From the NCBI GenBank assembly GCA_026396015.1, contig JAPLXP010000003.1, forward strand, positions 26,626-90,625: a stretch of 64,000 nt of DNA, written 5' to 3'. A program made the position numbers and the translations under genes. The notes beneath the pieces are model-generated. The model made no database searches and had not been told where the DNA came from. It saw nothing but the letters and a program-made list of their open reading frames with translations. Each line of letters begins with the position of its first letter. Position 1 is the stretch's first letter. Positions 12,809 to 52,943 of the stretch are shown here, piece after piece. Origin of the DNA: Candidatus Nomurabacteria bacterium (GTDB taxonomy: Bacteria > Patescibacteriota > Minisyncoccia > Phycocordibacterales > UBA9973).

Positions 12809-14380
12809 TTAATTTTGAGTGCGGGGGCGGTATTGGAGGGCTTCGAGGATATGAGGAGTGGTGATGCGCTCACTACTCTCTAGATCTGCGATTGTGCGGG
12901 CAAGTTTGATCACACGGTGATATGCACGGGCTGAGAGTTGGAGGCGCTCTGCGCTACTATGTAGTATCTCCCTCACTTCGGGTGATAGAGGTGCAAAGGT
13001 GTTCAATTCTTTTACATTCATCTCACTATTTGTTTTTATATTTCTCGTAGTGCTTTTGAATCTCATTTCCTGAATGTTACGGGCGCGAGCTACACGCTCC
13101 TTGATGGTCTGTGTACGATCACCCTCCACACCCTCACTTGCAAGCTTGTCGTAATCTACCGATGATACATTCACCCAGATGTCGATACGGTCGAGGATCG
13201 GTCCTGAAAGTTTTCTGTTGTATCTATCCAGGTCCATTGGTTTGCAAATACAAATTTTTTTCTTGTCACCACGATTGCCACATGGGCATGGATTCATCGC
13301 AGCTACGAGAATAAAATTTGAAGGAAAAATTGCAGAGCCTCGTGCACGAGAGATGGATACGATATTATCTTCGAGTGGCTGACGGAGTGACTCGAGAACT
13401 TTTTTTTCAAATTCTGGGAACTCATCTAAAAATAAAACTCCTTTGTGTGCGAGAGTGACCTCACCTGGTTTTGGATTTGCTCCACCTCCGATCATCGATA
13501 CGTAGCTCGCAGTATGATGTGGTGCACGGAATGGTGAATCAGTCACGAGTGCTCCATCGAGTAATCCGACAACAGAATGTATTCCAGTAATTTCCAAAAT
13601 ATCTTCCTTGGATAATTCTGGTAGGATGTGAGAGAAGACTCGTGCGAGCATCGTCTTGCCTGTACCAGGTGATCCACTCATCGCAATGTTGTGTCCACCG
13701 GCAGCTGCGATTTCCAGTCCTCTTTTTGCACCCTCTTGGCCACGGATGTCAGAAAAATCTATTGTATGTTTTTTATTTTCAAAAATTATTTTTGTCTCGG
13801 GTGTAGGTGTGATTTTATTTTTCTCTGGCTCTAATAAATTTCCTTTTTTATCACGTCGCGGGGTAGATAGATGGTCAATGACTTCGCGGAGATTTCTCGC
13901 TCCAAATATTTTTATCCCCGACACTAGTGCAGCTTCACTCGCATTCCCGACCGGTAAAAATATTTCTTTATAGCCTCTTTTCTTCGCCTCCTCAGCCAGT
14001 GGTAGTGCACCTTTAATATTTTGTAGTTCACCGTTGAGTGAAAGCTCTCCTAAAAATATTTTTTCCTCAGGGTCAAAATCTATCTCACCTGCTGATAGTA
14101 AATATGCTAGCGCGATACCGAGATCAAAGTACGGCCCCTCCTTTTTCAAATCTGCTGGAGAGAGTGAGATGACTATTTTTTGATTTTGATTTTTTGGGGA
14201 ATTGAATCCCGAATTTTTTAGAGCTGAACTCATGCGGTCCTTGGATTCATCGACTGCCTTGTCTGGTAATCCGACAAGAGTAAAAGCATGGAGTGTACCC
14301 TTTGTGATGTCCACTTCGATAGTTACTACTTTGCCTGAAAGTATTTGTGTCTGCGCAGAATATATTCGCGAGAATGACAT
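12809..14380 (-). CDS. comM: ComM/YifB-family Mg-chelatase-like AAA+ ATPase
   Basis: N-terminal Lon-protease-like domain, Walker A (SGSPGTGKTMLA) and a ChlI-type C-terminus. Overall architecture is YifB/ComM. Confidence 0.85.
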   Translation of the reverse strand: MSFSRIYSAQTQILSGKVVTIEVDITKGTLHAFTLVGLPDKAVDESKDRMSSALKNSGFNSPKNQNQKIVISLSPADLKKEGPYFDLGIALAYLLSAGEIDFDPEEKIFLGELSLNGELQNIKGALPLAEEAKKRGYKEIFLPVGNASEAALVSGIKIFGARNLREVIDHLSTPRRDKKGNLLEPEKNKITPTPETKIIFENKKHTIDFSDIRGQEGAKRGLEIAAAGGHNIAMSGSPGTGKTMLARVFSHILPELSKEDILEITGIHSVVGLLDGALVTDSPFRAPHHTASYVSMIGGGANPKPGEVTLAHKGVLFLDEFPEFEKKVLESLRQPLEDNIVSISRARGSAIFPSNFILVAAMNPCPCGNRGDKKKICICKPMDLDRYNRKLSGPILDRIDIWVNVSSVDYDKLASEGVEGDRTQTIKERVARARNIQEMRFKSTTRNIKTNSEMNVKELNTFAPLSPEVREILHSSAERLQLSARAYHRVIKLARTIADLESSERITTPHILEALQYRPRTQN

Positions 14381-14402
14381 AGGTTCATTATAATATGAAT
14401 TT

Positions 14403-14551
14403 TAAATTATTTAAATAGCTTCTCTCAAAAAGCATGAATATTTTTTTGGTAAAAAATTTCTCTGCTCGTCGATCAAGAAAATAATATTCGTAAACTCATT
14501 TATTTTCTAATCTCCTGTGCAAGACTTTTTTCAAGAACTATTTAAATAATT
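14403..14551. ncRNA. Copy A of a three-copy structured-RNA-like element (novel; strand unresolved)
   Basis: Terminal helix aaattatttaaatag / ctatttaaataattt (perfect 15 bp). Internal hairpin atttttttGGTaaaaaat. Conserved core ...ctctgctcgtcgatcaagaaaataatattcgtaaactcatttattttctaatctcctgtgcaagactttt. Lies 23 nt 5' of the comM start. Confidence 0.45.
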
Positions 14552-14552
14552 T

Positions 14553-14581
14553 TTACCAATAAAAAAATCCGCAATTGCGGA
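14553..14581 (-). terminator. Rho-independent terminator of dksA-like gene
   Basis: aaaaaaatccgcaattgcggattttttt palindrome with flanking A/T runs. Confidence 0.5.
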
Positions 14582-14589
14582 TTTTTTTA

Positions 14590-14931
14590 TTACATACAAT
14601 TTTTACAAGTCAGTGCAGATGGGTTTGCTTCGATGCGGTCTTCTTCAATCTTACCTCCGCATGTATCGCATACTCCATAAGTCCCCTCCTCTATTTTTAG
14701 TAATGCTTTGATGGTTGTGTTTAGTTTTTTTACGAGCACATTGATGAGTGAAGATTTTTCTTCGTAGTCTTCACTGCGGTCATCCATGTCACTCTCGTCA
14801 GCTTCAGTAGCACCTGAATCATCACTGACTGCTTGCCATTCACCAGTCTCTGAATTCTTTTTACCCAAGCCAGAGAGCTCTTCTTCTAATAACAATTTCT
14901 CTGTTTCAAGTTGTAGTTTATATTTTTCCAT
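14590..14931 (-). CDS. DksA/TraR-family C4-type zinc-finger protein
   Basis: C-terminal CDTCGGKI...CKNCM four-Cys finger. Coiled-coil N-terminus. Confidence 0.65.
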   Translation of the reverse strand: MEKYKLQLETEKLLLEEELSGLGKKNSETGEWQAVSDDSGATEADESDMDDRSEDYEEKSSLINVLVKKLNTTIKALLKIEEGTYGVCDTCGGKIEEDRIEANPSALTCKNCM

Positions 14932-15852: not shown

Positions 15853-15869
15853 ATTTTTTAAATAATTTA

Positions 15870-16022
15870 AATCTTACATAAAATAGCTTCTCTTGAAAAG
15901 CACACATAATTCTCTGGTGAGAATTTGCTCTGCTCGTCGATCAAGAAAATAATATTCGTAAACTCATTTATTTTCTAATCTCCTGCGCAAGACTTTTCTC
16001 GAGAACTATTTTATTACAGATT
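15870..16022. ncRNA. Copy B of the three-copy structured-RNA-like element
   Basis: Terminal helix aatcttacataaaatag / ctattttattacagatt (covaries relative to copy A). Hairpin aattctcTGGTgagaatt. Core nearly identical to copy A. Lies 18 nt 5' of the start of membrane-protein gene 14968..15852. Confidence 0.45.
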
Positions 16023-18248: not shown

Positions 18249-18355
18249 TAACCTATTAATACTGTAATCTTACCAGAAAATAGCCTTTTTTCAAATGAAA
18301 AATATAAATAAAATAGCCCCCGACCTACTGGTCGGGGGCTATTTTATTTAGTTAT

Positions 18356-18859
18356 TTATCTCATCAAATATTTCTGTGGGCTGGCAGATAGGTCGAGGAA
18401 GTCATCGGCGGCATCTTTTAGTTTCATAGATGCGGATTTACCGAATGAAACGACTTCTACCTGGGTACCGTATGTATTCTGTAGATATTCTACGAGCGGG
18501 ATAAAGTCCCCATCTCCAGCTACTAGCACTACTGCATCCAGACGGGGTGCCATCTTCATAGCATCTACTGCTATTCCGACATCCCAGTCTCCCTTCTTTG
18601 CTCCACCGGCAAAAATCTGAAGTTCTTTTGTTTTTGTCTCGATTCCTAGCTTGGTCAATGCGTCAAAGAAGCTCTTTTCATCGCCTGCTTCACTAGTGAT
18701 CACATATGCTGTGGCGCGGACTAATTTACGTCCTGCTACTGCGTCTTTTAATACTGCACCAAAATTAACCTTTCTTTTATAAAGGTTCTTGGCACTATGG
18801 TAGAGGTTGGCTGTATCGATAAATACACCCACTCTCTGTTCTTTGTGTTTTATTATCAT
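18356..18859 (-). CDS. NYN-domain (LabA-like, PIN-related) protein
   Basis: VGVFIDTANLY...VLVAGDGDFIPLV pattern typical of NYN/LabA nucleases. Confidence 0.65.
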   Translation of the reverse strand: MIIKHKEQRVGVFIDTANLYHSAKNLYKRKVNFGAVLKDAVAGRKLVRATAYVITSEAGDEKSFFDALTKLGIETKTKELQIFAGGAKKGDWDVGIAVDAMKMAPRLDAVVLVAGDGDFIPLVEYLQNTYGTQVEVVSFGKSASMKLKDAADDFLDLSASPQKYLMR

Positions 18860-19007
18860 TTTATTTTTATTTATACGGTGACATAATGTTATTTTTGGAA
18901 CAATAATTTTCTGCTGAAAATTATTTCAGGCTTCGGGCCGGCCGCCCTGCAGAAGTCCAAAAATAATATCATGGCACCTCTTAATACTATTACAGTATAC
19001 CAAATTA

Positions 19008-19036
19008 AAATATCTCGACTAACAGTCGAGATATTT
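19008..19036 (-). terminator. Terminator hairpin downstream of rpsO
   Basis: atctcgactaacagtcgagat stem flanked by T/A runs. Confidence 0.5.
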
Positions 19037-19039
19037 TAA

Positions 19040-19300
19040 TTATGCTTTTAATTTTTTACTAACTGTCGCATGGCGAGTCTTGTCTGTCTTTTCTAAATAC
19101 TTTAGGTGTTTTCGGCGGTCTGCAACCATCTTGATAAGTCCACGACGAGAGTGATTGTCCTTCTTGTGTGTCTTCAAGTGTGATGCTAGCTCATCAATCT
19201 TTTCAGTTATTACAGCGATCTGAACCTCTGGAGATCCAGTGTCCTTGTCGTGAAGCTGATTTTTCTTAATGATGTTTGCCTTTTTCTTCGTTGTTAACAT
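19040..19300 (-). CDS. rpsO: 30S ribosomal protein S15
   Basis: MLTTKKK...[14 protein letters not shown]...[19 protein letters not shown] matches S15. Start chosen at the internal Met; the ORF's N-terminal extension is spurious. Confidence 0.85.
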
Positions 19301-31764: not shown

Positions 31765-32517
31765 TTATTTTGAAATTGGTAATGAGATGTAAAAAATAGT
31801 TCCATTGTTTGGGTCTTTTGACTGAAAATTTATTTTACCATAATGATGGTCAATGATATTTTTTGCTACATATAGCGAAAGTCCCATACCATCGGTGTTC
31901 ATTTTTACGGCCGCTGCGCTACGGTAGAATCTTTTAAATACATTTCTTTTGTCTTTCCATTTCATGCCAATACCAGAGTCTTCGATTGCTAACACAATAT
32001 TACTATCCTCCACTTTTGCCCCAATAGATATCGTACCTTCGGTCTGTGAGTACCGTATCGCATTTTCTAAAACCGCATGAATTGCAAAAGAAATCTTTTT
32101 TGTATCTACTGATAATAATGGTAGGGAATTTAGGGCTGATATTTGGAGATGAATTTTCTTTTCATTTATTGGGTTGTGATATTTAGCGATACCTTCCTCT
32201 ATAATCTCTCGCAGTGATACTGTCTTCATAAAATACAATGAACTATTGTTCACATCTTGTATTCCCGCAAGAGTGTCAACTATTTCTAGTAGGTGATTGG
32301 TTGTATTTGAAATATTTTTATTTATTTCTATTTGTTCTGTGCGGGGCAAATCAGGGTTCATATTGTCGGTCATCCACTTTATGCGAGTTAGTGGTGTGCG
32401 AAAAGTATGATTTACTATTGAAATAAAGGATTTTTCAATGATTTTACCGTCTATATGTGTTTTTATTGAATAAATAAATAATGCGATTAGCAGAATAAAT
32501 AAAATTGTTGTTTGCAT
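31765..32517 (-). CDS. Sensor histidine kinase (orphan, single TM)
   Basis: H-box NHTFRTPL. HATPase_c with DSGIGM and GMGLSLYVAKNII. No adjacent response regulator. Confidence 0.75.
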   Translation of the reverse strand: MQTTILFILLIALFIYSIKTHIDGKIIEKSFISIVNHTFRTPLTRIKWMTDNMNPDLPRTEQIEINKNISNTTNHLLEIVDTLAGIQDVNNSSLYFMKTVSLREIIEEGIAKYHNPINEKKIHLQISALNSLPLLSVDTKKISFAIHAVLENAIRYSQTEGTISIGAKVEDSNIVLAIEDSGIGMKWKDKRNVFKRFYRSAAAVKMNTDGMGLSLYVAKNIIDHHYGKINFQSKDPNNGTIFYISLPISK

Positions 32518-33150: not shown

Positions 33151-33177
33151 AGTTTTGTATATAATTAAATTATTAAA

Positions 33178-33292
33178 GCGAATCTTAAAATTAGCTCTTC
33201 TCTAAATGCACGCATGATTTTCTGGTGAAAATCTGCTCTGCTCGGCTACCCGCCTGCGCAAGGCATTTCTCAAAGACTAGTTTTAAGATTCG
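33178..33292. ncRNA. Copy C of the three-copy structured-RNA-like element (shorter variant)
   Basis: Terminal helix gcgaatcttaaaattag / ctagttttaagattcgc (16/17, with one U-G if on + strand). Hairpin gattttcTGGTgaaaatc. Core ctgctctgctcg...cctgcgcaagg conserved, but the ~45-nt variable hairpin of A/B is replaced by a short segment. Lies 27 nt 5' of the clpP start. Confidence 0.45.
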
Positions 33293-33399
33293 CAAATTAC
33301 CTATATATCTTAACAAAATAAGGGGAATTTACCCCATTGACAAAAGGGGTATAAATATGATATAATATACACAAGAAAACAAATTAACTAAATACGGAT

Positions 33400-35246: not shown

Positions 35247-35831
35247 TTAGTCTAATTTTGGGGCGTATTCCTTTTCGTATTTCTCAGTACACTCTTTTAG
35301 GACCTTGATTGCTTCTTCTGGTCCGTAGAATGTCTCTACTACTCCGGTACCTGGTTTCTTTAGGTATTTTATGTTTTCCCAGAAATATTTAGTCTCTGTT
35401 TTAAAATATTCACCTAAATCTTCAACAGTTTTGATGTGGTCAGACCGGCGATCATCAGCGAGTACTGCGATAATCTTGTCATCTACCTCACCACCGTCTA
35501 TGAATTTCATGACACCGATCACACGAGCTTCTACTAGGGATCCTGGTACGAGGGGCTCTGTGATGTTTACGATCTCTACATCTAGTGGATCACCATCATA
35601 ATCCCAAGTCATAGGGATCGCTCCGTATGTGAATGGGTATGCTAGTGTCGAATATCCTACACGATCCAGCTTCAGCTGGCCTGATTCTGTAATCATCTCG
35701 TATTTATTGATGCTACCAGCAGATACTTCGATTATTGTATTGATCACACCTTTTTCTTCGTTTGCAAATGCAGGTAGCACGTGCAATAGATTGTACATGA
35801 ATTTACTAGGTTTTTGATTTATGTTTGCCAT
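35247..35831 (-). CDS. ppa: Inorganic pyrophosphatase
   Basis: DYDGDPLDVEIV and surrounding family-I PPase motifs. Confidence 0.85.
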   Translation of the reverse strand: MANINQKPSKFMYNLLHVLPAFANEEKGVINTIIEVSAGSINKYEMITESGQLKLDRVGYSTLAYPFTYGAIPMTWDYDGDPLDVEIVNITEPLVPGSLVEARVIGVMKFIDGGEVDDKIIAVLADDRRSDHIKTVEDLGEYFKTETKYFWENIKYLKKPGTGVVETFYGPEEAIKVLKECTEKYEKEYAPKLD

Positions 35832-35922
35832 AGAATTAGTTTCTAGTAACTAGGGGCTAGTTGCTAGTGTAATTTATTTATAATTTTTTCTAGTCACTAG
35901 AACCTAGTTACTAGCTTGCTAA
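35832..35922. repeat. CTAG-built palindromic intergenic repeat (family member 1)
   Basis: tagtttctagtaactaggggctagttgctagt ... ctagtcactagaacctagttactagc. Between ppa and nusA. Confidence 0.6.
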
Positions 35923-37107
35923 TTAATTTGTTCCATCATCTACTATTCCATCATCTAGTACATCTTCTGATGCTGTATCACCACTGTCTACTGTCACAGC
36001 TTCTGCACCATTGATATCGATTCTCCATCCTGTGAGTTTTGCTGCAAGGCGTACATTTTGTCCACCCTTGCCTATAGCTAGTGATAGCTGATCTGCGGCT
36101 ACTTCTACTGTAGCCTTGTGATCTGCTTCATTTATAGTCAGACTGAGGACTTTTGCTGGAGATAGGGCACTAGTTACGTATTCACCAGTATCTGCTGACC
36201 ATGGGATGATGTCGATCTTTTCACCGGCAAGCTCACTCATGACTGTAGTCACGCGGATACCTTTTTGACCTACACATGATCCTACTGGATCAATATGCTC
36301 ATCATTTGAATATACTGCGATTTTTGAACGACTTCCAGCTTCGCGGGCGATAGATTTGATCTCTACTGTGCCACCTGCTATTTCTGGAGCCTCAACTGCG
36401 AACAATCCTTCGATAAATTGAGGATGTGTACGAGAAAGCTTTAGATTGATACCTCTTGGAGTCTCTTCGACTGCATATAGATATGCACGGATTCTCTCTC
36501 CACGCTTGTAGAATTCTCCTGGAATTTGCTCTTCTGGGAGCATGATACCTGTCGCACGGTTAAATTCAATATATACGATACCTCTTTCTACTTTTTGTAC
36601 GAAACCATTAATGATTTCTCCTTCTTTTGCACCGTATTCATCGATAATACTTGCTCTCTCTGCTTCACGGATCTTTTGGATTATTACTTGTTTTGCTGTC
36701 TGAGCGGCAATACGTCCATAATCTTCATGTGTCTCAAGGGGGAATATGAGTTCTTCTTCTAGTTGAACGTCACTCTTTATCTTTTTTGCATCTTCGATTA
36801 GGATATGATGCTCTTCGTTAAAGCGTGTACGCTCATCGTCTTCTGCTAGTTCTTCCTCTTCAACGCCTTCAATATTCTTTGGGATGTATACTATTGTCTC
36901 ATCTACTGCGATTTTTACTTGGTAGAAATCCATAGCACCAGTATCCAGGTCAAAGCGATTGCGGATTATCTGGCCCTTCTTACCGTATTCCTTTTTGTAA
37001 GCAGCAGCCAAAGCTTGCTCTATAGCATCGAGAATTTTATCTTTTGGTATTTTTCTCTCAGTCTCGAGTTGTTCGAGTGCTGATTTCATTGTTTTTATGT
37101 CTATCAT
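35923..37107 (-). CDS. nusA: Transcription termination/antitermination factor NusA
   Basis: N-terminal NusA domain, S1, and two KH domains (GQKGIRVTTVMSELAGEKIDII ; IGKGGQNVRLAAKLTGWRIDI). Confidence 0.9.
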   Translation of the reverse strand: MIDIKTMKSALEQLETERKIPKDKILDAIEQALAAAYKKEYGKKGQIIRNRFDLDTGAMDFYQVKIAVDETIVYIPKNIEGVEEEELAEDDERTRFNEEHHILIEDAKKIKSDVQLEEELIFPLETHEDYGRIAAQTAKQVIIQKIREAERASIIDEYGAKEGEIINGFVQKVERGIVYIEFNRATGIMLPEEQIPGEFYKRGERIRAYLYAVEETPRGINLKLSRTHPQFIEGLFAVEAPEIAGGTVEIKSIAREAGSRSKIAVYSNDEHIDPVGSCVGQKGIRVTTVMSELAGEKIDIIPWSADTGEYVTSALSPAKVLSLTINEADHKATVEVAADQLSLAIGKGGQNVRLAAKLTGWRIDINGAEAVTVDSGDTASEDVLDDGIVDDGTN

Positions 37108-37160
37108 ATTAGTTTCTAGGTTTTAGTTTCTAGTTGCTAGCTAAAACTAAAACTCTTTTT
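37108..37160. repeat. CTAG-built palindromic repeat (family member 2) in nusA upstream region
   Basis: ttagtttctaggttttagtttctagttgctagctaaaactaaaac. Confidence 0.55.
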
Positions 37161-37610: not shown

Positions 37611-40187
37611 ATGCGTATTCGTTCTATATTGATGTCACCCTTATTGCTCTCTTTAGTCTTTTTGCTATCTATTTTTATGGGTAGTTTCAAGGTTGAGGCT
37701 GCCTCTGTGTCAAATGATTTGTTTGGAGCGGCATATTCTAATAACATAGGCCCTGTTTCCTTTAATAATTGTGCTAGCTCTGACCCTGCTAGTTGTAGTG
37801 GACAATCTTACAAAGTGACTACTTTTTGGGATTCAAGTAATCCTAATTGGACATATTTAACTGGGTACGCCTGGAGTGATAGTATTGGCTGGATCGCTTT
37901 TTCAAATAGCTATGTGTCTACTTCAGGTTGCCCACCAATTCCTAATTGGTATAGTTGTCAGATTGCCTACAGTACCAATACTGGTGTTATCTCTGGATGG
38001 GGTCGTGCTGTTTCGTATGGTGATGGCTGGGATGGTTGGATAAACTTTAGTGGTGTCACTGTAGGTAGTGCTGGGCCTTCTGGAATCAGAGCCTTGTCTG
38101 GTAATGCTTGGGGTTCAGATATTGTTGGTTCATTGAATATGTCTGGCGTAAATATAAAGGAAACACCACCTACTAGCTCAGTAACATTGGTCGCAAGTCC
38201 TAATCAAGTTGGTCCTGATGGTAGTGGTGCTAGTAATCAAACTACATTGATATGGTCAGGTCAAAATGTGACTAGCTGTACAGCATCAGCTTCTTCTTCA
38301 AGAGGTGATTGGACCGGCCCTCTCGGTACTAGTGGTACAAAAGTTGTTCAAGTTGGCCCAAGTGTTACATATTCTATAGATTGTATAAATAATGTTACCA
38401 ATCAAGTTGCATCAGCTAGTGCTCCTGTGACTACTGGAGTAGCACCTAGTGATGATCTTGATGTAATTTTCCTTAATTCATTTGGTAAAACTATCAATGT
38501 TAGTAGTGTTGGTACTTGGAGTAATACGATCACTGCTATATTGACTAGTCATAGTGGTGCTACGAATGTGTCACTTTTTATAGATCCTAATTCTGGAGGC
38601 CCTAATCCTTCAGAAATTACTGATTTGAGTAATTACAATATAAAAGTGTATAGCTCTTATAATTTTAATGTTTCGGGTCAGTGTAGTGGAAATGTTATTT
38701 TTAGCAGTGCTAATCCTCAATCTTTTTCAATTCCCGCTCGAGAAGTGTATTGTGTTGAAGTTAAATCAAAACTTCCAGTATTGCCACCGACAGGTCCTTA
38801 TGGTAGCTATTACAATTTATTCTTGGTTGCTACCAGTCAAAATGTTACTACACCGGTTAATACTCCATTTGGTGGTAATGGTTTTCAGGTTAAAGTTACA
38901 AATAATACACCAACACTTACTTTTGTTGCTAGTACTACTCCGAGTAGTGGATTGCCTTACACTGGAGGGCCCGTTAGATTAAATTGGGATAGTACAAATA
39001 CCACAGATTGTACTGCAAGCACTAATTGGTCTACTTGGGCCGGTTCGCCTACTTGGGCTGGTGCAGGTATGACACCGAAGAAGCTTGGTGATGTGAAGGG
39101 AACGGCTTCAGGTAACATTACCAACACGGAAACATTTACTATTTCTTGTAATTATATTGGTTCACCAACTCCAATTACAGCCAGCGTTGTCGTAACTGTT
39201 CCTCCTGATCCTGCGTTACCGACTGTTAGTCTGACTGCAAGTCAAACTAAATTTACTGGGTCAATAGGTAAACCTACATTGTCTTGGACTAGTACAAAAG
39301 CTGTGAGTTGTGGTCCTGAAAGTTGGACAAAAAAGACATCTACTAGCGGATCAGAAGTTGTGACTGTTAATACTAGTACTACTTTTAATTTAACTTGTTA
39401 TAACTCATCCAATGGTTCAACTACAGATACAGTAAAAATTACAGTAATTCCAGGTCAGTTGCCAGAAATATATATGTCGGCATCTCCAGATACTCTGGGC
39501 ACAGGTGGAGGAAATACTGTCATATCTTGGGACTCTAGACCATATGGTACTTCTTGTGGTAGTCCAACTATCGGTGGTAGTGTGTCATCTCCTGCATGGA
39601 CAACAAAAACTTCTGCATATGGCTCACAGAGTGGCTCACAGAGTGTTTCTCTGACGACAGGGTCTACTTATGGCATTAGTTGTTCTAATTCCTTTGGAAC
39701 AACAAAATCTTCTATTACTATTCCAGTTGCAAATACTCCACCAGCTCCAGCAGTACTAATGCAGGCCACTTTGATAAATGGAAATAATTATAAAATATCA
39801 TGGAGCAGTACAGACACAACGTATTGCGGAAACCCAACAGTGTCACCTGCATCTTCAAACCCTTGGACTACAAAAGATACAGTTGATGGTTTTGAAAATT
39901 TGTCCATCAGTGTTAATACATCTTTTGGAATTACTTGTTATAACTCAAATGGAGATTCAGCTATAGATAATGTGAGTGTGACTCCTGCTCCACCTATTCT
40001 TCCAAATATAATTATGTCAGCAAAACCCCATTCTCTGGGCACAGGTGGAGGAAATACTGTCATATCTTGGGACTCTAGACCATATGGTACTTCTTGTGGT
40101 AGTCCAACTATCGGTGGTAGTGTGTCATCTCCTGCATGGACAACAAAAACTTCTGCATATGGCTCACAGAGTGACTTATGGCATTAG
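37611..40187 (+). CDS. Giant secreted Ser/Thr/Gly-rich surface protein with tandem Ig-like repeat modules, N-terminal part (likely one gene with 40045..42891)
   Basis: Signal peptide MRIRSILMSPLLLSLVFLLSIFMGSFKVEA. Repeated ~90-aa modules with W(S/D)S...C and F.I.C.N motifs. Ends at a stop created by a 32-bp length difference inside a 540-bp tandem repeat. Confidence 0.6.
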   Translation: MRIRSILMSPLLLSLVFLLSIFMGSFKVEAASVSNDLFGAAYSNNIGPVSFNNCASSDPASCSGQSYKVTTFWDSSNPNWTYLTGYAWSDSIGWIAFSNSYVSTSGCPPIPNWYSCQIAYSTNTGVISGWGRAVSYGDGWDGWINFSGVTVGSAGPSGIRALSGNAWGSDIVGSLNMSGVNIKETPPTSSVTLVASPNQVGPDGSGASNQTTLIWSGQNVTSCTASASSSRGDWTGPLGTSGTKVVQVGPSVTYSIDCINNVTNQVASASAPVTTGVAPSDDLDVIFLNSFGKTINVSSVGTWSNTITAILTSHSGATNVSLFIDPNSGGPNPSEITDLSNYNIKVYSSYNFNVSGQCSGNVIFSSANPQSFSIPAREVYCVEVKSKLPVLPPTGPYGSYYNLFLVATSQNVTTPVNTPFGGNGFQVKVTNNTPTLTFVASTTPSSGLPYTGGPVRLNWDSTNTTDCTASTNWSTWAGSPTWAGAGMTPKKLGDVKGTASGNITNTETFTISCNYIGSPTPITASVVVTVPPDPALPTVSLTASQTKFTGSIGKPTLSWTSTKAVSCGPESWTKKTSTSGSEVVTVNTSTTFNLTCYNSSNGSTTDTVKITVIPGQLPEIYMSASPDTLGTGGGNTVISWDSRPYGTSCGSPTIGGSVSSPAWTTKTSAYGSQSGSQSVSLTTGSTYGISCSNSFGTTKSSITIPVANTPPAPAVLMQATLINGNNYKISWSSTDTTYCGNPTVSPASSNPWTTKDTVDGFENLSISVNTSFGITCYNSNGDSAIDNVSVTPAPPILPNIIMSAKPHSLGTGGGNTVISWDSRPYGTSCGSPTIGGSVSSPAWTTKTSAYGSQSDLWH

Positions 40188-42891
40188 TTGTTCTAATTCC
40201 TTTGGAACAACAATATCTTCTATCCCTATTCCAGTCGATAATACGCCTCTTCCTCCTTCTGTGTCCATGCAAAAAACATTGATAAGTGGAAATAATTATA
40301 AAATATCATGGAGCAGCACAGATACAACATCTTGTGGAAATCCAACATCAATACCTATATTGTTTGGTGCTAATTCTCCGAACCCTTGGACTTCACAAAA
40401 TGCAACTACTGGTTTTGAAAATTTGACTATTGAAACGAATACATCTTTTGGAATTACTTGTTATAACTCAAATGGAGATTCAGCTACAGATAGTGTGAGT
40501 GTGACTCCTACTCCTGTCACACCCGAAATATCTATGTCTATATCTCCGGCAATCTTGCCTGCTGGTGGTGGAAATTTTACTGTTTCTTGGACAAGTGCAA
40601 ATACTGTATCTTGTCATGCCGTGACTCCTGTTGATTGGACTACAAAAACATCAACATCTGGATCTGAGAGTATGACAATCGGTGATAATCCTGGAACTTA
40701 TGACATAGTAATATCTTGTTCTAATGCTATCGGTGTACTGGCAACAGTAAGTAGTAGGATTAGTGTCCCTGAGCGTCCTAAATTGAGTGCAACAATTTCT
40801 GTTACTCCCGTCGTAGGAGGAATGACAGATATATCTTGGAAAAGTGAGGGAACTAATAGTTGTAGCGCCACTTGGACAGAATATCGGGCCACAAAAGGAA
40901 CACAAAGGAATGTGCTGGTTCGTGGGTCAACAGAATTCGGCATTACTTGTTTTAATGGAGAAAAGAGTGTGACAGCTTCGACTATTGTGGTAGTAGGTGG
41001 GGGAGAAGTAACAGTTACCTTGAGTGCTATTCCTGCTTTTTCTGGTGGAGAGGCTACTCTTGTCTGGGAATCTACAGATACTGGACCTGGACCTGTTTCT
41101 TGTTATCAAAATAATTCAAAAGAAAACATTAATTGGAGTTCTTGGGCAGGAGCTACCACTGCTGGTAGTGGTTATGCAAAAGGGGATGTTGCAAAAACAG
41201 ACACATTTAGTATTACTTGTAAGGATGTAAACAGTCCAGATTCTAAGGCATCTACAGCATTTGTTTCTATTTCTGTTGTTAAATCAAATCCTATTTCTGC
41301 TTCATTGTTTGTCTCACCTTCAGCCCTGTCTTCTCCTGGAAATGTTGATTTGAGTTGGAATAGTATTGGAACTGTGAGTTGTACTCCAAGTTGGTCAAGC
41401 TCAAATTTTGCTACTAGTGGCACTGAGACTGTCGCTGTGAATAATAAAACACAATTTACTGTTGTTTGTACTGATGGCAAGAGTAGTTTTACTACTGCTT
41501 CAGCTACTGTATTGGTTGGTGGTTCTTCCTCTGGTATCACATTTAATACAAATATTTATGCCAACCCGAATGTTTTATATGAAGTAGGAACAACAAAAAT
41601 AACATGGAGTTCTGGTTCTAATGCTACTTCTTGTGTAAAAGATTGGATGGATCCTTTAAATACAGCTACTAATGGCACAGATACTTTGAATGTATCAAGT
41701 ACAAAACTTTTTACTGTCACTTGTTCTGATGGTTCGGGAAATGAAGAAAAATCTTCTGTATCTGTCGTTGTAAAGACTCCCTCTAAACTTCGAGTGTCTA
41801 TCTCAGCGACACCTTCTTCTAGTTTTGGTAGTCGCTCTGTAGTGGGTAGTGGTGCTGGTCCTGTGACTCTCGACTGGTCAAGTATAAGTGCTACGGATTG
41901 TACTCCAAGTTGGAATAGTGCTAAAAAGGGTGATTTAAATGGCAGTGAGAGTATTTGGTTGTCTGAAACTACTACTTTTGTTATTGATTGTACTGATGGT
42001 AATCAGAGTGCCTCTGCATCTGTGGTTGTAAATATTGTGGATACTGATAAACCATTGATGAATAGTTCAATCTTTGCAAATCCACCATCCCTACCTTCTG
42101 CAGGTGGAATTGTAAAACTTATTTGGAATAGTATTGGATTATCGGATTGTTCACAGAGGTCTTCCTCAAATTCAGGCGGTAGAGACTGGACTGATTGGTT
42201 GGGGGCAGATCCTTCTACCGGTGGTAGTGCTAAAAAGTTCCTTTCTTGGAGTGATTTGTTTAGTATTACTTGTACTGGTCCAGAGCATTCTGCTACTACC
42301 GGTTTTGTAGTGTCTCCTTCAAGTAATTTTGACTTACATGTTTCATTGTCTACTGATAAGACAGTATTTGACACAAATGGAAAAGCCCTACTTTCTTGGG
42401 ATAGTAATGCAGATAATTGTACTCCAAGTTGGAATAGTTCAAAAAATGGTAAAAAGGATAGTGAACTTGTAAATATTACAGGTACAGAAACATTTACTGT
42501 TGTATGTCATACAAACAAAGCTGAGGCGAGTTCTACTATAACTGTGTTCATGGTTGATTCTGATGGATCATATGTCAATTTAAGTGCTACTCCGAGTACT
42601 CTTTTCGGGAAAGGTAAATCAAAGATTGTATGGAGTGGTAGTAATAATCTTAAGTGTGTAAAGGATTGGATGGATCCAGCAGATACAACATCAGATGGTT
42701 TTGATATCATAGATATTGTACAACAAAAAACATTTAAAATTTCCTGTACAGCAATAGGTAGTATCGTTCCAATCAAGAGATCTGTAACTGTCGGGTATAG
42801 AGAGGACCTAGGTGGTGGAGGAGGCTGCAAGGGGTGGTGTCCTATTTCTACTGGTTCTGCTATTCATAAATCAAAATACAAAGAAAGATAA
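40045..42891 (+). CDS. Giant secreted Ig-repeat surface protein, C-terminal part (continuation in +1 frame)
   Basis: Same module architecture repeated about 12 more times. First 133 nt are identical to 39493..39625 in the upstream ORF. C-terminus GGGGGCKGWCPISTG. Confidence 0.6.
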   Translation: MEEILSYLGTLDHMVLLVVVQLSVVVCHLLHGQQKLLHMAHRVTYGISCSNSFGTTISSIPIPVDNTPLPPSVSMQKTLISGNNYKISWSSTDTTSCGNPTSIPILFGANSPNPWTSQNATTGFENLTIETNTSFGITCYNSNGDSATDSVSVTPTPVTPEISMSISPAILPAGGGNFTVSWTSANTVSCHAVTPVDWTTKTSTSGSESMTIGDNPGTYDIVISCSNAIGVLATVSSRISVPERPKLSATISVTPVVGGMTDISWKSEGTNSCSATWTEYRATKGTQRNVLVRGSTEFGITCFNGEKSVTASTIVVVGGGEVTVTLSAIPAFSGGEATLVWESTDTGPGPVSCYQNNSKENINWSSWAGATTAGSGYAKGDVAKTDTFSITCKDVNSPDSKASTAFVSISVVKSNPISASLFVSPSALSSPGNVDLSWNSIGTVSCTPSWSSSNFATSGTETVAVNNKTQFTVVCTDGKSSFTTASATVLVGGSSSGITFNTNIYANPNVLYEVGTTKITWSSGSNATSCVKDWMDPLNTATNGTDTLNVSSTKLFTVTCSDGSGNEEKSSVSVVVKTPSKLRVSISATPSSSFGSRSVVGSGAGPVTLDWSSISATDCTPSWNSAKKGDLNGSESIWLSETTTFVIDCTDGNQSASASVVVNIVDTDKPLMNSSIFANPPSLPSAGGIVKLIWNSIGLSDCSQRSSSNSGGRDWTDWLGADPSTGGSAKKFLSWSDLFSITCTGPEHSATTGFVVSPSSNFDLHVSLSTDKTVFDTNGKALLSWDSNADNCTPSWNSSKNGKKDSELVNITGTETFTVVCHTNKAEASSTITVFMVDSDGSYVNLSATPSTLFGKGKSKIVWSGSNNLKCVKDWMDPADTTSDGFDIIDIVQQKTFKISCTAIGSIVPIKRSVTVGYREDLGGGGGCKGWCPISTGSAIHKSKYKER

Positions 42892-45050: not shown

Positions 45051-46250
45051 ATGGCAGAAGAATTTAATCGTTCAAAGCCGCACGTAAACGTTGGTACTAT
45101 TGGCCACGTTGACCACGGCAAGACGACTTTAACAGCAGCAATCCTTAACACATTGGCTCGCCAAGGTGGTGGATATAGTGCAAAACTAAAGGGGGTAGGG
45201 GATATTGACTCAGCTCCTGAAGAAAAAGCTCGTGGAATCACTATCGCGCTTTCTCATAACGAGTATGAAACTCCAGCTCGTCACTACGCTCACATTGATG
45301 CTCCAGGTCACGCTGACTACATCAAAAACATGATTACTGGTGCCGCTCAAATGGATGGTGCTATCCTCGTAGTTGCTGCAACTGACGGTGCGATGCCTCA
45401 AACAAAAGAGCACGTGCTTCTAGCAAAACAGGTTGGTGTGCCACAATTCGTTGTGTTTCTAAACAAATGCGACATGGTGGAGGACCAAGACATGTTGGAA
45501 CTAGTTGAAGAAGAAATCCGTGATTTGCTTACAAAAAATGGATATGATGGTAAAAATACTCCAGTTATCCGTGGTTCAGCTCTAAAGGCTCTAGAATCAG
45601 CAGATAACAATGACGAATGGGCAAAGAAGATCCTAGATCTTACTAACGCTCTAGATACATACATTCCACAACCAGAACGCGATATTACAAAGCCATTCCT
45701 TATGCCAATCGAAGATATCTTTTCTATCGAAGGCCGTGGAACAGTGGTTACAGGTAAGATCGAGCGCGGTATCGTGAAAGTAGGACAAGACGTAGAAATC
45801 GTTGGTATCAAGGATACAGTGAAGACTACAGTTACTGGTATTGAAATGTTCAACAAATCTTTGAAAGAAGGTATGGCTGGAGACAATGCTGGAATCCTAA
45901 TCCGTGGTATCAAAAAAGAAGATATTACTCGTGGACAAGTTCTTGCAATCCCAGGTTCAGTTACTCCACACTCAGAATTCGAATGTGAAGTTTACGTTCT
46001 AAAGAAGGAAGAAGGTGGTCGCCACACTCCATTCTTTACTGGATACAAGCCACAATTTTACATCCGTACAACAGACGTTACAGGTGAATCAACTCTTCCA
46101 GAAGGTGTAGAGATGGTTATGCCAGGAGACACTGTTAAACTAAAGGTAAAACTAGTTACTCCAGTAGCTCTCGAAGATCAAACACACTTTGCTATCCGTG
46201 AAGGAGGTAAGACAGTCGGTGCTGGTGTCGTAACAAAGGTTATCGCTTAA
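45051..46250 (+). CDS. tuf: Elongation factor Tu
   Basis: [18 protein letters not shown] and NKCD G-motifs. Full-length EF-Tu. Confidence 0.95.
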
Positions 46251-46345
46251 GTTAGGTGCTAGTAACTAGGGACTAGGTTCTAGTTTGAATTTAATTCAAC
46301 TAGAAACTAGAAACTAGAAACTAGAAACTAGAAACTAAAAATATT
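46251..46345. repeat. CTAG-built palindromic repeat (member 3) with a (CTAGAAA)x5 heptamer tandem array
   Basis: gctagtaactagggactaggttctagtttgaatttaattcaactagaaactagaaactagaaactagaaactaaaaa. Confidence 0.6.
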
Positions 46346-46699
46346 ATGACTACAACTACCGTTAAAAAAGAAAAAAAGGTGAAAGAGGATGGTATCGTCC
46401 GTCTCCGTATCCGCGTAAGAGCTTATGAAAATAAGATTCTTGACACTAGTGTCAAGCAGATTATCGATACAGCACTCCGCTACGATGCAAAGATCGTTGG
46501 TCCAATCCCTCTTCCAACTGAAATAAAGAAGTACACTGTGAACCGTGCATCATTCGTTTTTAAGAATGCTCGTGAACAGTTTGAAATAAGAATTCACAAG
46601 CGTGTTATCGATATCCTGAATCCAAATCCAAAGACTATCGAGGCGTTGACTAACTTGTCTCTTCCGTCCGGAGTAGATATTGATGTGAAAATGATGTAA
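46346..46699 (+). CDS. rpsJ: 30S ribosomal protein S10
   Basis: RLRIRVRAYENKILDTSVKQIIDTALRYDAKIVGPIPLPT matches S10. Protein has a ~15-aa N-terminal extension. Confidence 0.9.
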   Translation: MTTTTVKKEKKVKEDGIVRLRIRVRAYENKILDTSVKQIIDTALRYDAKIVGPIPLPTEIKKYTVNRASFVFKNAREQFEIRIHKRVIDILNPNPKTIEALTNLSLPSGVDIDVKMM

Positions 46700-46781
46700 T
46701 TAAAATTAGGTTTCAGTAGCTAGTGATTAGTTTTTAGTATTTATATACTAGACCCTAGAAACTAGAACCTAACCCCAATAT
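46700..46781. repeat. CTAG-built palindromic repeat (member 4)
   Basis: tagctagtgattagtttttagt...actagaccctagaaactagaacctaacc. Confidence 0.55.
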
Positions 46782-47381
46782 ATGAAATTTATTCTAGGTA
46801 AAAAACAGAATATGGTGCAGTTCTTCGATGAAGATGGCACAGTAGTCCCAGCAACGATTATCGATGCGGGTCCTATTGTAGTTACTCAAGTCAAGACTCC
46901 AGAGACTGATGGCTACACTGCTGTTCAAGTAGCATTCCTCGATCAAAAAAAGGAGCGTGCGACTAAAGCGCACCTGGGCCATGTTAAAGAAGGTGCTTAC
47001 AAGCATCTTCGAGAGTTTCGCGATATCGAAGAAATCGCAGTCGGTGATCGTATCACAGTGAGTAGTTTTGCTGCAGGTGATACAGTTATCGTATCAGGTA
47101 TTTCAAAAGGAAAAGGTTTTCAAGGAGTTGTGAAGCGTCACGGCTTTGCTGGAGGTCCTCGCACACACGGTCAGAAACACTCTGAGCGTGAGCCAGGTTC
47201 TATCGGCGGAGGTCTTCGTAATCGTGTACCAAAAGGTATGCGCATGGCGGGACGTATGGGTGGTGATCGTATCACAGTTCGCAACTTGAAAGTGGTCGGC
47301 GTAGATGTTGAAAACAACCAATTACTCATTAAAGGCGCAATCCCTGGACGACGTGGTACTCTAGTGGAAGTCATAGGATAA
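46782..47381 (+). CDS. rplC: 50S ribosomal protein L3
   Basis: ILGKKQNMVQFFDEDG...GKGFQGVVKRHGF matches L3. Confidence 0.9.
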   Translation: MKFILGKKQNMVQFFDEDGTVVPATIIDAGPIVVTQVKTPETDGYTAVQVAFLDQKKERATKAHLGHVKEGAYKHLREFRDIEEIAVGDRITVSSFAAGDTVIVSGISKGKGFQGVVKRHGFAGGPRTHGQKHSEREPGSIGGGLRNRVPKGMRMAGRMGGDRITVRNLKVVGVDVENNQLLIKGAIPGRRGTLVEVIG

Positions 47382-52247: not shown

Positions 52248-52490
52248 ATGAACACAACAAAGATAAATAAGAATAAAGTACTCAAAGGAGTTGTAACAAG
52301 TGATAAGATGGATAAGACAATCGTAGTATCTGTAACTCGCTTCGTAGAACACGCAAAGTACGGAAAGCGAATCAAGAAGAGCAAGAAATACAAGGCTCAT
52401 GATGAAAACAACACAAAGAAAATTGGCGATGTAGTCGAAATCGAAGAGACAAAACCAATGTCAAAAGACAAGCATTTTAAGGTAATATAG
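52248..52490 (+). CDS. rpsQ: 30S ribosomal protein S17
   Basis: [22 protein letters not shown]...[31 protein letters not shown] matches S17. No L29 gene lies between rplP and this gene. Confidence 0.85.
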
Positions 52491-52571
52491 AATTAGTTTA
52501 TAGTAGCTAGGGGCTAGGTTCTAGGGATTGAATTCACTAGAAACTAGAAACTAGAACCTAATCAAAAATTT
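52491..52571. repeat. CTAG-built palindromic repeat (member 5)
   Basis: tagtagctaggggctaggttctagggattgaattcactagaaactagaaactagaacctaatc. Confidence 0.6.
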
Positions 52572-52943
52572 ATGATACAAGACGGAACAGTAGTAAAGAT
52601 CACAGATAATGCCGGCGGTAAAGTCGGAAAGGTTTTCAAAGTGCTTGGATCTTCAAAGCGTCGTTATGCTGGTATCGGTGACCGTGTAGTCCTCTCAGTA
52701 AAAGTTGCTGAACCTCGCAAGGGTGTAAAGAAAAAGGATGTTCTACAGGCTGTCGTTGTACGTACTACAAATGCATTTCGCCGTAAGGATGGTTCATACA
52801 TCCGTTTTGATGACAACGCAGTTGTAATCTTAGAAAAGGACAAGCAGGATCCAAAAGCAGGTCGTGTGTTCGGTCCAATTCCTCGTGAATTGGCAGAACG
52901 TGGTTACCAAAAGATCATATCTTTGGCACCAGAGGTGATTTAA
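52572..52943 (+). CDS. rplN: 50S ribosomal protein L14
   Basis: MIQDGTVVKITDNAGGK...RVFGPIPRELAERGY matches L14. Confidence 0.9.
   Translation: MIQDGTVVKITDNAGGKVGKVFKVLGSSKRRYAGIGDRVVLSVKVAEPRKGVKKKDVLQAVVVRTTNAFRRKDGSYIRFDDNAVVILEKDKQDPKAGRVFGPIPRELAERGYQKIISLAPEVI

Follow-up and report, generated by a model that had tools for sequence, protein, structure and literature searches.

In a 64,000-nucleotide stretch of a Candidatus Nomurabacteria genome (contig JAPLXP010000003.1, positions 26,626 to 90,625 of the forward strand; hereafter the window), a first-pass annotation had pointed to a structured, RNA-like element occurring in three copies just 5′ of comM, a membrane-protein gene, and clpP. 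Upon following up this element, we consider it probable that the three copies, designated A, B, and C, and a fourth, diverged one, D, belong to a family of repeats that lie dispersed between the genes of Patescibacteria, the candidate phyla radiation (CPR), are non-autonomous, and have moved recently. The best reading of the element is a new, structured repeat that resembles MITEs (miniature inverted-repeat transposable elements) and REPINs and has an unusually RNA-like fold. The element occupies short spacers between housekeeping genes, with either orientation, is gained or lost among close relatives, and spreads from genome to genome as a whole unit; its fold would be constrained as a single strand, be it a single-stranded DNA (ssDNA) transposition intermediate, as for IS200/REPIN-type elements, or its own RNA. 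Its location beside comM, the membrane-protein gene, and clpP would then be a by-product of compact spacers that run from stop codon to hairpin, −10 box, and ATG, and any effect on neighboring genes, through transcript-end stability, read-through, or promoter context, would be secondary.

All four copies lie on the minus strand. Copy A (14404..14552, 149 nt, long-arm form) occupies the spacer between the terminator of p113, a DksA/TraR-type gene, and the comM promoter; copy B (15870..16022, 153 nt, long-arm form) lies between the stop codon of the polynucleotide phosphorylase (PNPase) gene, which it overlaps by 2 nt, and the gene for a 294-aa membrane protein; and copy C (33178..33293, 116 nt, short form) is found where clpP and a 203-aa gene diverge. 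These three had been located correctly by the first-pass annotation, with edges shifted by at most 1 base, and their placement 18 to 27 nt 5′ of minus-strand start codons was borne out, the measured distances to the ATG being 23, 17, and 27 nt for A, B, and C, respectively. A 22-nt core pattern matched the window three times, at A, B, and C only, compared with 0.07 matches expected. We then scored the window with R1, a covariance model built from A, B, and C, and with R2, a family-wide covariance model: copy A yielded 151 and 80.6 bits, copy B 169.6 and 101.2 bits, and copy C 115.7 and 108.5 bits, respectively. The count of three fell one short, as the scoring revealed copy D at 18877..18978 in the 5′ untranslated region (UTR) of a gene for an NYN-domain protein (R1, 24.9 bits; R2, 45.6 bits, E = 5e-8; minus strand only), which has a variant apical core, lacks the UAG/UGAGA scaffold described below, and is closed by a 23-bp outer helix. 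The remaining model matches in the window were plain hairpins with equal scores on both strands. All four copies are in sense orientation, with a start codon 12 to 27 nt downstream.

The covariance-model search for further copies, which the first-pass annotation had proposed as a check, returned the fourth copy in the window and about 130 further copies in genomes and metagenomes of Patescibacteria. An exact pattern run once against species-representative genomes gave 46 loci, whose titles were nearly all Patescibacteria-type (Nomura-, Kaiser-, Yonath-, and Taylorbacteria and Paceibacteria, with some labeled Saccharibacteria), and these loci contained 51 good covariance-model matches, up to 6 to 7 per 8 kb. 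A metagenome scan with the long-arm form gave 74 loci and 82 matches, which makes ~137 copies in ~750 kb of CPR loci, with 4 in the window (compared loci, whether genomic, metagenomic, or viral, carry L-numbers below). The records carrying the family are mainly titled Paceibacteria/Parcubacteria-type and cover several candidate CPR lineages. Thus, the element is non-coding, 115 to 155 nt long, multi-copy, and dispersed, as a MITE is expected to be. In some spacers (L117:5689-5956, L151:6791-7027, and L120:3571-3851) two copies stand 5 to 50 nt apart in divergent, convergent, or tandem arrangement.

As a control, 1.06 Mb of viral DNA picked by partial patterns was searched and contained no model match, and the specific element pattern found no match in viral contigs. 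A loose 14-nt pattern produced 111 chance matches in these contigs, and the pattern CTTGCGCAGG-N(4-30)-CGAGCAGAG produced 33 viral loci; none of either was confirmed by the model, and the latter was a false lead. A recurrent phage sequence among the 33, with CTTGCGCAGGGATWCTSCGCCGAGCAGAG (L245, L248-L255, L257, L259, L260, L264-L267, and L271-L273) reads as coding in our own translation (...ACAGILRRAEK...), a motif that we take to be one of methyltransferase-like proteins, and its likeness to the P2 helix of the element looks coincidental. Consistent with the statement that the element matches no known RNA family, Rfam 15 gave no family at gathering score on the copies, only four tRNAs in the whole window, and nothing on the element cores at E ≤ 10, while Rfam matches near 14560-14590 belonged to the neighboring terminator only. 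Likeness by eye to the hammerhead, twister, and hairpin ribozymes, 5S rRNA, signal recognition particle RNA, U6, boxA, the integron attC site, and the K-turn was considered, and no supporting matches were obtained for any of them. No description of such a CPR repeat was found in the searchable literature.

Copies A, B, and C share a common three-way-junction fold, with z scores of −3.9 to −6.3 relative to shuffled sequence (−4.6 for copy A). In these three copies alone, 19 of the 57 predicted pairs stay paired despite double-sided changes, and among 75 distinct long-arm sequences such changes affect 46 of the 57 pairs. In the alignment of the 75 sequences, which was fitted to the model, 95.6% of the cells are paired compared with 73.3% in shuffles, and the covariation score is 0.49, whereas shuffles reach 0.13 and sliding the partners gives no more than 0.13. 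These data indicated that the fold is convincingly conserved and kept by compensatory change, and that the terminal helices and hairpin stems, differing from copy to copy and yet paired, had been described correctly. On the minus strand, G·U pairs occur at five pair positions in A, B, and C compared with one on the plus strand, and the minus-strand folds of A and B are ~9 kcal/mol more stable than those of the plus strand; the element therefore reads on the minus strand, with a hairpin loop ACCA.

The overall shape is a long rod consisting of an outer closing helix, a scaffold, a short helix (P1c), and an apical three-way junction. In copy A, the 5′ arm of the closing helix (AAATTATTTAAATAG, 14538..14552) is a 15-bp perfect complement to the 3′ arm (CTATTTAAATAATTT, 14404..14418), and a sequence similar to the latter is plain flank in L234. 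The scaffold, UAG-UYCUUGAGAA paired with UUUGAGAGRAGCUA, is semi-conserved and contains a GA-type symmetric YGAR/YGAR internal loop. P2 (UUGC/GCAG, with a conserved RCAGG opposite CGA) bears either a ~10-nt hairpin or a ~45-nt arm; this variable arm, noted earlier in A and B and named P2a here (14471..14513 in copy A), is by alignment missing from short-form copies such as C, and its apical stem covaries around a G-UAnY-C loop across the long-arm subfamily. Short (~115 nt) and long (~150 nt) forms are both present across the family, so that tolerance of a variable arm holds well beyond the window. The 3′ strand of P2 and the junction form the conserved CGAGCAGAG (14460..14468), invariant in A, B, and C, although its conservation among the genome-scan copies is partly forced by a search pattern that contained GAGCAGAG; the 5′ strand of P2 with its internal loop, CUUGCRCAGG (14514..14523), was absent from the search patterns, and its conservation is therefore real. 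P3 (14436..14460 in copy A) is a 7- to 8-bp, fast-covarying hairpin with a bulged A, in which 9 of 10 pairs are double-changed across the family. Its ACCA loop is invariant within the window, as had been stated, and not across the family, in which AGCA, AGCU, AGUA, AACA, AGAA, and other loops occur on many unrelated stems (AUCCGCC/GGCGGAU, AAUUCCU/AGGAAUU, and others); P3 had been left unconstrained in the metagenome long-arm search. Conservation peaks in the central asymmetric core and is lowest at the ends.

Evidence for mobility came from filled and empty sites in close relatives. L191 and L192, whose flanks are 94 to 96% identical, are reciprocal, each being filled where the other is empty. 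L233, in which the membrane protein is 93% identical to that of the window, has an orthologous copy A with the same outer helix and lacks B and D. The site of copy B is also empty in L238-241, L133, L134, and L117, the copy B unit is present in L234 with an identical 3′ arm, and more filled/empty pairs were found beyond these. Further, copy B and L192:3524 share 94% identity from end to end of the unit, outer helix and all, although L192:3524 lies at an unrelated locus and the membrane protein of its genome is just 54% identical to that of the window. Copies A and B form a mosaic, with 53 nt of identical arm followed by differences at 8 of 28 positions in P3. At the comM-upstream site of L133 and L134 the element cores are 97% identical, compared with 93% for the ComM proteins and 57% for third codon positions of comM (59% within identical residues). 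Together, the filled and empty sites, the 94% unit identity, the core identities, and the mosaics show, as judged from these sequence comparisons, whole-unit spread and exchange. A strain variant was also sought via an identical ClpP protein, and the only match was the same organism, 100% identical; the 294-aa protein likewise recurs unchanged in an NCBI metagenome-assembled genome named Candidatus Nomurabacteria, to which the window belongs. The first-pass annotation had set the element apart from MITEs on the grounds that a MITE would keep identical ends, an argument that does not hold, since copy B does keep its ends in L192, filled and empty sites are common, and compensatory changes are already seen in the hairpins of REPINs (PMC3116915). 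A few metagenome copies (L190:779-934 and L220:2191-2343/L229:13609-13761) have 5′ and 3′ halves from different copies (L123 + L133 and L223 + L216, respectively) and non-complementary arms; these could be recombinants across the conserved core or assembly chimeras.

The orientation of the element relative to genes was found to be close to even. Among the ~137 copies, 30 are sense and 36 antisense in co-directional gene contexts. In the orthologous p113|comM spacer, the window, L133, and L190 have the element in sense orientation and L134 has it in antisense, and in the recA-upstream spacer it is sense in L149 and antisense in L121; the opposite-orientation copies of L133 and L134 have unrelated outer helices. 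The neighboring genes lack a common function, coding for ComM, ClpP, PNPase, an NYN-domain protein, RecA, FtsK, elongation factor P (EF-P), and L11, among others. Copies are positioned tightly against stop codons, with a median distance of 1.5 nt on the 3′ side.

Promoter positions in the window also bear on this issue. Gene starts lack a Shine-Dalgarno sequence (e.g., at 1631, 2515, 10834, 31765-32517, 54399, 60875, and 63007), and many are preceded by a TATAAT-type −10 box, frequently extended to TGnTATAAT, that ends ~6 nt from the ATG; together these features imply that leaderless mRNAs are widespread in this Nomurabacteria-type genome. The comM promoter follows this pattern: its TATAAT box (14387..14392) stands 6 nt ahead of the ATG at 14380 and separates copy A from the gene; comM of L133 and L134 has TGCTATAAT and TGCTATACT at the same place. 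Since the −10 box falls within the 17- to 27-nt gap, the proximal promoter lies downstream of A and C and probably also of B. Copy D alone has a recognizable promoter upstream, an extended −10 element (TGGTATACT, 18994..19002, minus strand; TGTTATACT in the L233 counterpart), and thus lies within a 5′ UTR. The suggestion that comM, the membrane-protein gene, and clpP might have the element as their 5′ leader is therefore at odds with the 30 sense and 36 antisense copies, with the flips at orthologous sites, and with the −10 box in the gap. A canonical intrinsic terminator was rejected as well, as the copies show neither terminator-like sites nor U-tracts: the 8 nt after the helix contain a mean of 2.7 T, the same as controls. 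A promoter of the type TGnTAnnnT reading into the element was found for 14 of 121 copies, including 1 of 33 in antisense context, and a promoter inside the element with TTGAGA as −35 was dismissed for its inconsistent spacing to the actual −10 box.

To what extent the fold is constrained on one strand was evident from the wobble pairs. In variable pairs, defined as those in which no pair type reaches 70%, the ratio of G·U to A·C was 184:38, and the excess was seen in sense (45:6), antisense (47:14), divergent (45:8), and convergent (26:2) contexts alike. A strand-symmetric, ungapped count over the outermost 14 pairs gave 47:20 (P = 0.0013). A mutational strand bias linked to transcription or replication is ruled out, as orientation relative to genes is random. 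Most simply, what has to fold would be the element's own sense strand in single-stranded form, which may be either an ssDNA transposition intermediate or the element's own RNA, and we infer that the constraint acts on the element and not on the mRNA of the neighboring gene.

The outer closing helix behaves differently from the rest of the element. It is shared within sub-lineages (window B, L192:3524, and L191:5105; L149:3052 and L121:4651) and unrelated between them, the inner scaffold alone being shared family-wide. At four well-resolved sites, one arm-like sequence is retained in the empty allele. At the site of D, L233 is empty and carries GGTGACATAATGTAATT once, in forward direction; this sequence equals the 5′ arm in the window, and the 3′ arm in the window is an inverted copy of it, its reverse complement matching L233 at the first 13 of 13 positions. 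At the empty B site, the PNPase gene end TCTGAAATAAAATAA in L233 and the spacer sequence ATCTGAGGTAAAAAT in L238 resemble the 5′ arm of B, and at the empty site L191:3928-3942, GTATGAAATATT resembles the last 12 nt of the 3′ arm. These retained arms would fit an asymmetric excision that leaves a singlet, by analogy with the proposal for REPINs (PMC3116915); they likewise fit insertion beside a pre-existing host sequence that becomes one arm, via tail pairing or fold-back copying. A bolder interpretation, which we put forward only as a speculation, is that this family of streamlined CPR genomes constitutes a structured selfish element of a new class. A putative mobilizing enzyme would act on the three-way-junction core in the form of ssDNA or RNA, and the closing helix would be rebuilt at each site by host-flank pairing or inverted copying. 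The speculation is prompted by copy D, whose 3′ arm repeats in inverted form a sequence present singly in L233, where the site is empty, and, if true, it would imply that transposition proceeds without fixed terminal repeats and direct target duplications of the usual kind.

Used as guides, the outer arms found one 12-mer match elsewhere in the window, beside copy B. On the minus strand, the 3′ flanks of B (15857-15868, TAAATTATTTAAA) and C (33152-33177, TTTAATAATTTAA) resemble the 3′ arm plus flank of copy A (TTTAAATAATTTAAAA), and this AT-rich block common to the 3′ sides of A, B, and C may be an upstream promoter sequence or a preferred target. The TTAG/CTAA junction of copy C is shared by the sense copies upstream of clpP in L189, L203, and L215.

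Several observations weigh against a mobile repeat. No transposase, RAYT, or reverse transcriptase was seen in the fetched loci, and the dense loci L149 and L121 hold only L11, EF-P, RecA, and FtsK. No autonomous parent with matching ends was found, in an orphan-end search that was swamped by AT-rich noise and is uninformative. No clean target-site duplication was resolved at the junctions, which are AT-rich and of low complexity; possible 5- to 9-nt AT-rich direct repeats (TATGNAATA-like) at two events are inseparable from the element's quasi-palindromic ends. Conservation is highest in an asymmetric central core that contains conserved G·U and GA-type motifs, a pattern that fits a functional RNA better than the ends of a MITE. 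The pair counts were obtained from alignments fitted to the model, and the AGCU-centered perfect palindromes that are frequent in P3 suggest that DNA template switching at hairpins could yield paired changes without selection. Finally, the copies upstream of clpP have sense orientation in 4 of 4 genomes, and between L189 and L215 their outer helix differs by three double changes and one G·U, which suggests maintenance in place and hence possibly a host-level role. The orthologous copy A of L233 is distinguished from that of the window by a swap between U-A and C-G at the closing pair of P3, and this swap and the clpP-upstream helix changes point to some maintenance in place.

By behavior, the nearest known systems are ERIC/Correia-type MITEs and REPINs, an assignment made by analogy. 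Bacterial MITEs of the Correia/NEMIS and ERIC/IRU types (reviewed in PMC2229807) are, like the CPR element, shorter than 200 bp, non-coding, A+T-rich, intergenic, and present in many copies in either orientation; their ends pair into one long stem-loop, relatives show filled and empty sites, and TA lies within conserved junctions (UAG...CUA in the element). Correia elements occur as 107- and 155-bp forms that differ by an internal insertion of ~45 to 50 nt (PMC2229807), much like the ~115- and 150-nt forms here. In contrast to these MITEs, the CPR element lacks sequence similarity to them, is found in a different phylum and across several candidate CPR lineages rather than in one genus or family, is conserved in an asymmetric central three-way junction and not in terminal inverted repeats, and has an outer helix that varies between sub-lineages, with no target-site duplication or parent insertion sequence demonstrated here.

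REPINs are doublets of REP sequences that form hairpins and are mobilized by RAYT transposases (PMC3116915). Shared with them are hairpins of ~100 nt predicted in ssDNA or mRNA, compensatory changes, extragenic position, tandem or adjacent copies, and long persistence, and possibly also asymmetric excision that leaves a singlet, if the arm-like sequence of the four empty alleles is such a remnant; a REPIN-like single-stranded intermediate would also explain the one-strand excess of G·T/G·U. Unlike REPINs, which have conserved terminal REPs and a variable spacer, the CPR element has a conserved centre and variable ends, its core is not palindromic, and no RAYT was seen in the fetched loci. Beyond the general character of a small mobile hairpin, no defining feature of ERIC/Correia MITEs or REPINs was demonstrated for the element. 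The element also resembles orphan structured RNA motifs, of the sort that comparative genomics yields and Rfam lists with no known function, in its covarying multi-helix fold, conserved junction nucleotides, and hundreds of representatives confined to a single lineage; no Rfam 15 model matches it, and its orientation and gene association are not fixed as they are in cis-regulators.

The proposal with most to recommend it besides a mobile repeat is a host-functional structured RNA module, which the repeat would have been from the outset or have turned into and which might serve as a 3′-end stabilizer, an RNase processing site, or an insulator in polycistronic transcripts, or give rise to small RNAs that bind a conserved CPR protein, its fold being kept by host-level selection at each locus. 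ERIC and Correia elements have been shown to act as such transcript-level RNA parts, and a module of this kind overlaps with a mobile origin and does not exclude one. The conserved CUUGCRCAGG outside the search patterns, an invariant U·G pair in P2 (which partly rests on a G fixed by the search pattern), the excess of G·U over A·C, the uniformly sense clpP-upstream copies with their compensatory change in place, the P3 swap of copy A, the placement of D in a real 5′ UTR, and the tight fit against stop codons are all in its favor. It nevertheless seems to us unlikely, because orientation is random although the fold is constrained on one strand only, a sense-strand promoter is recognizable in just 1 of the 33 copies in antisense context, the helix is not followed by a U-tract, the same site lacks a copy in close relatives, and flanking genes from PNPase, RecA, and FtsK to EF-P, ClpP, and ComM are functionally unrelated. 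If RNA-mediated mobility were instead driven by the three-way-junction core, as a new RNA that is catalytic or recruits an enzyme, the ribozyme-like pattern of conserved junction and loop nucleotides with freely covarying stems, the many copies in either orientation under a one-strand constraint, and the failure to match any known class would follow readily; there is, however, no association with reverse transcriptase in what was seen, nor are there A-tails or clear target duplications of variable length, and we rate this as improbable.

Two further schemes were also considered. In one, the opposite orientations at orthologous sites and the 15- to 30-bp inverted repeats around an asymmetric core would reflect an inverton, a DNA-level switch whose outer repeats let the core flip in place and alter the promoter or terminator context. 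In-place inversion would preserve the outer helices, and those of the flipped copies are unrelated; in addition, no promoter lies consistently inside the element, no invertase is nearby, and the internal hairpins covary, which an inverton does not need. A flipped copy C had no match in the metagenomes, which is weak evidence, as the native strain has not been shown to be in that collection. An inverton is very improbable. Least likely is that comM, the membrane-protein gene, and clpP are controlled in cis by a 5′-leader RNA resembling a riboswitch or binding a protein, a view that is contradicted by orientation and promoter position and is highly improbable in spite of the conserved fold, the sense orientation of all four window copies close to start codons, and the recurrence of clpP-upstream copies in other genomes. 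More than half of the co-directional copies (36/66) are antisense, the comM-upstream copy is inverted in L134, and a −10 box between element and ATG makes the proximal transcript leaderless; neither a Shine-Dalgarno sequence nor a terminator is available as an expression platform, B and D are dispensable in the 93%-identical relative L233, and the genes do not form a functionally coherent set. Four sense copies of four have a chance probability of ~1 in 8 (two-sided).

The genomes of CPR bacteria are very small, and mobile DNA and known regulatory RNAs are usually said to be scarce in them. The repeat family fills many of the short spacers between their genes, in some loci as many as one for each gene boundary, and moves between close relatives and apparently between species too, and its multi-helix fold shows covariation as strong as in accepted RNA families. 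In practice, the element is a source of assembly chimeras and rearrangements in CPR metagenome-assembled genomes, a trap for motif hunters as a riboswitch look-alike, and a marker for strain-level population genetics. If the mobilizing activity were new, or the core catalytic or enzyme-recruiting, it would constitute a new kind of small mobile element.

Other repeats and signals were observed along the way. A second structured repeat, at L121:519-626 and L129:4930-5017, has a similar AUAG...CUAU scaffold and a long closing helix around a different, G+C-rich core (GGUGUGGGCGCGCCG.AGCGAG...CGAGCG.AGAGGGAUAAG). A different insertion of ~115 nt, at L235:3873-4000 (= L236) in the PNPase/membrane-protein spacer, overlaps the start codon and has perfect 14-bp terminal inverted repeats (ATCCCGTTAGAGAT) with ATGGA on both sides, and is thus a classical MITE. 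In the window, bidirectional intrinsic terminators made up of an A-run, a G+C stem, and a T-run are located at 14560-14590, 18300-18357, and 19003-19041, and the shoulders of the second of these, AAAATAG...CTATTTT, resemble the element junctions. CTAG arrays with a period of 7 nt, (A/T)CTAGNN repeated four to six times, occur at 35830-35914, 37103-37140, 46246-46352, 46700-46786, and 52487-52575, directly upstream of several start codons on both strands, and could be a regulator-binding array or a second repeat family. The large gene region at 39100-42550 contains internal direct repeats of 170 to 540 nt with units 93 to 96% identical, typical of a repetitive surface protein.

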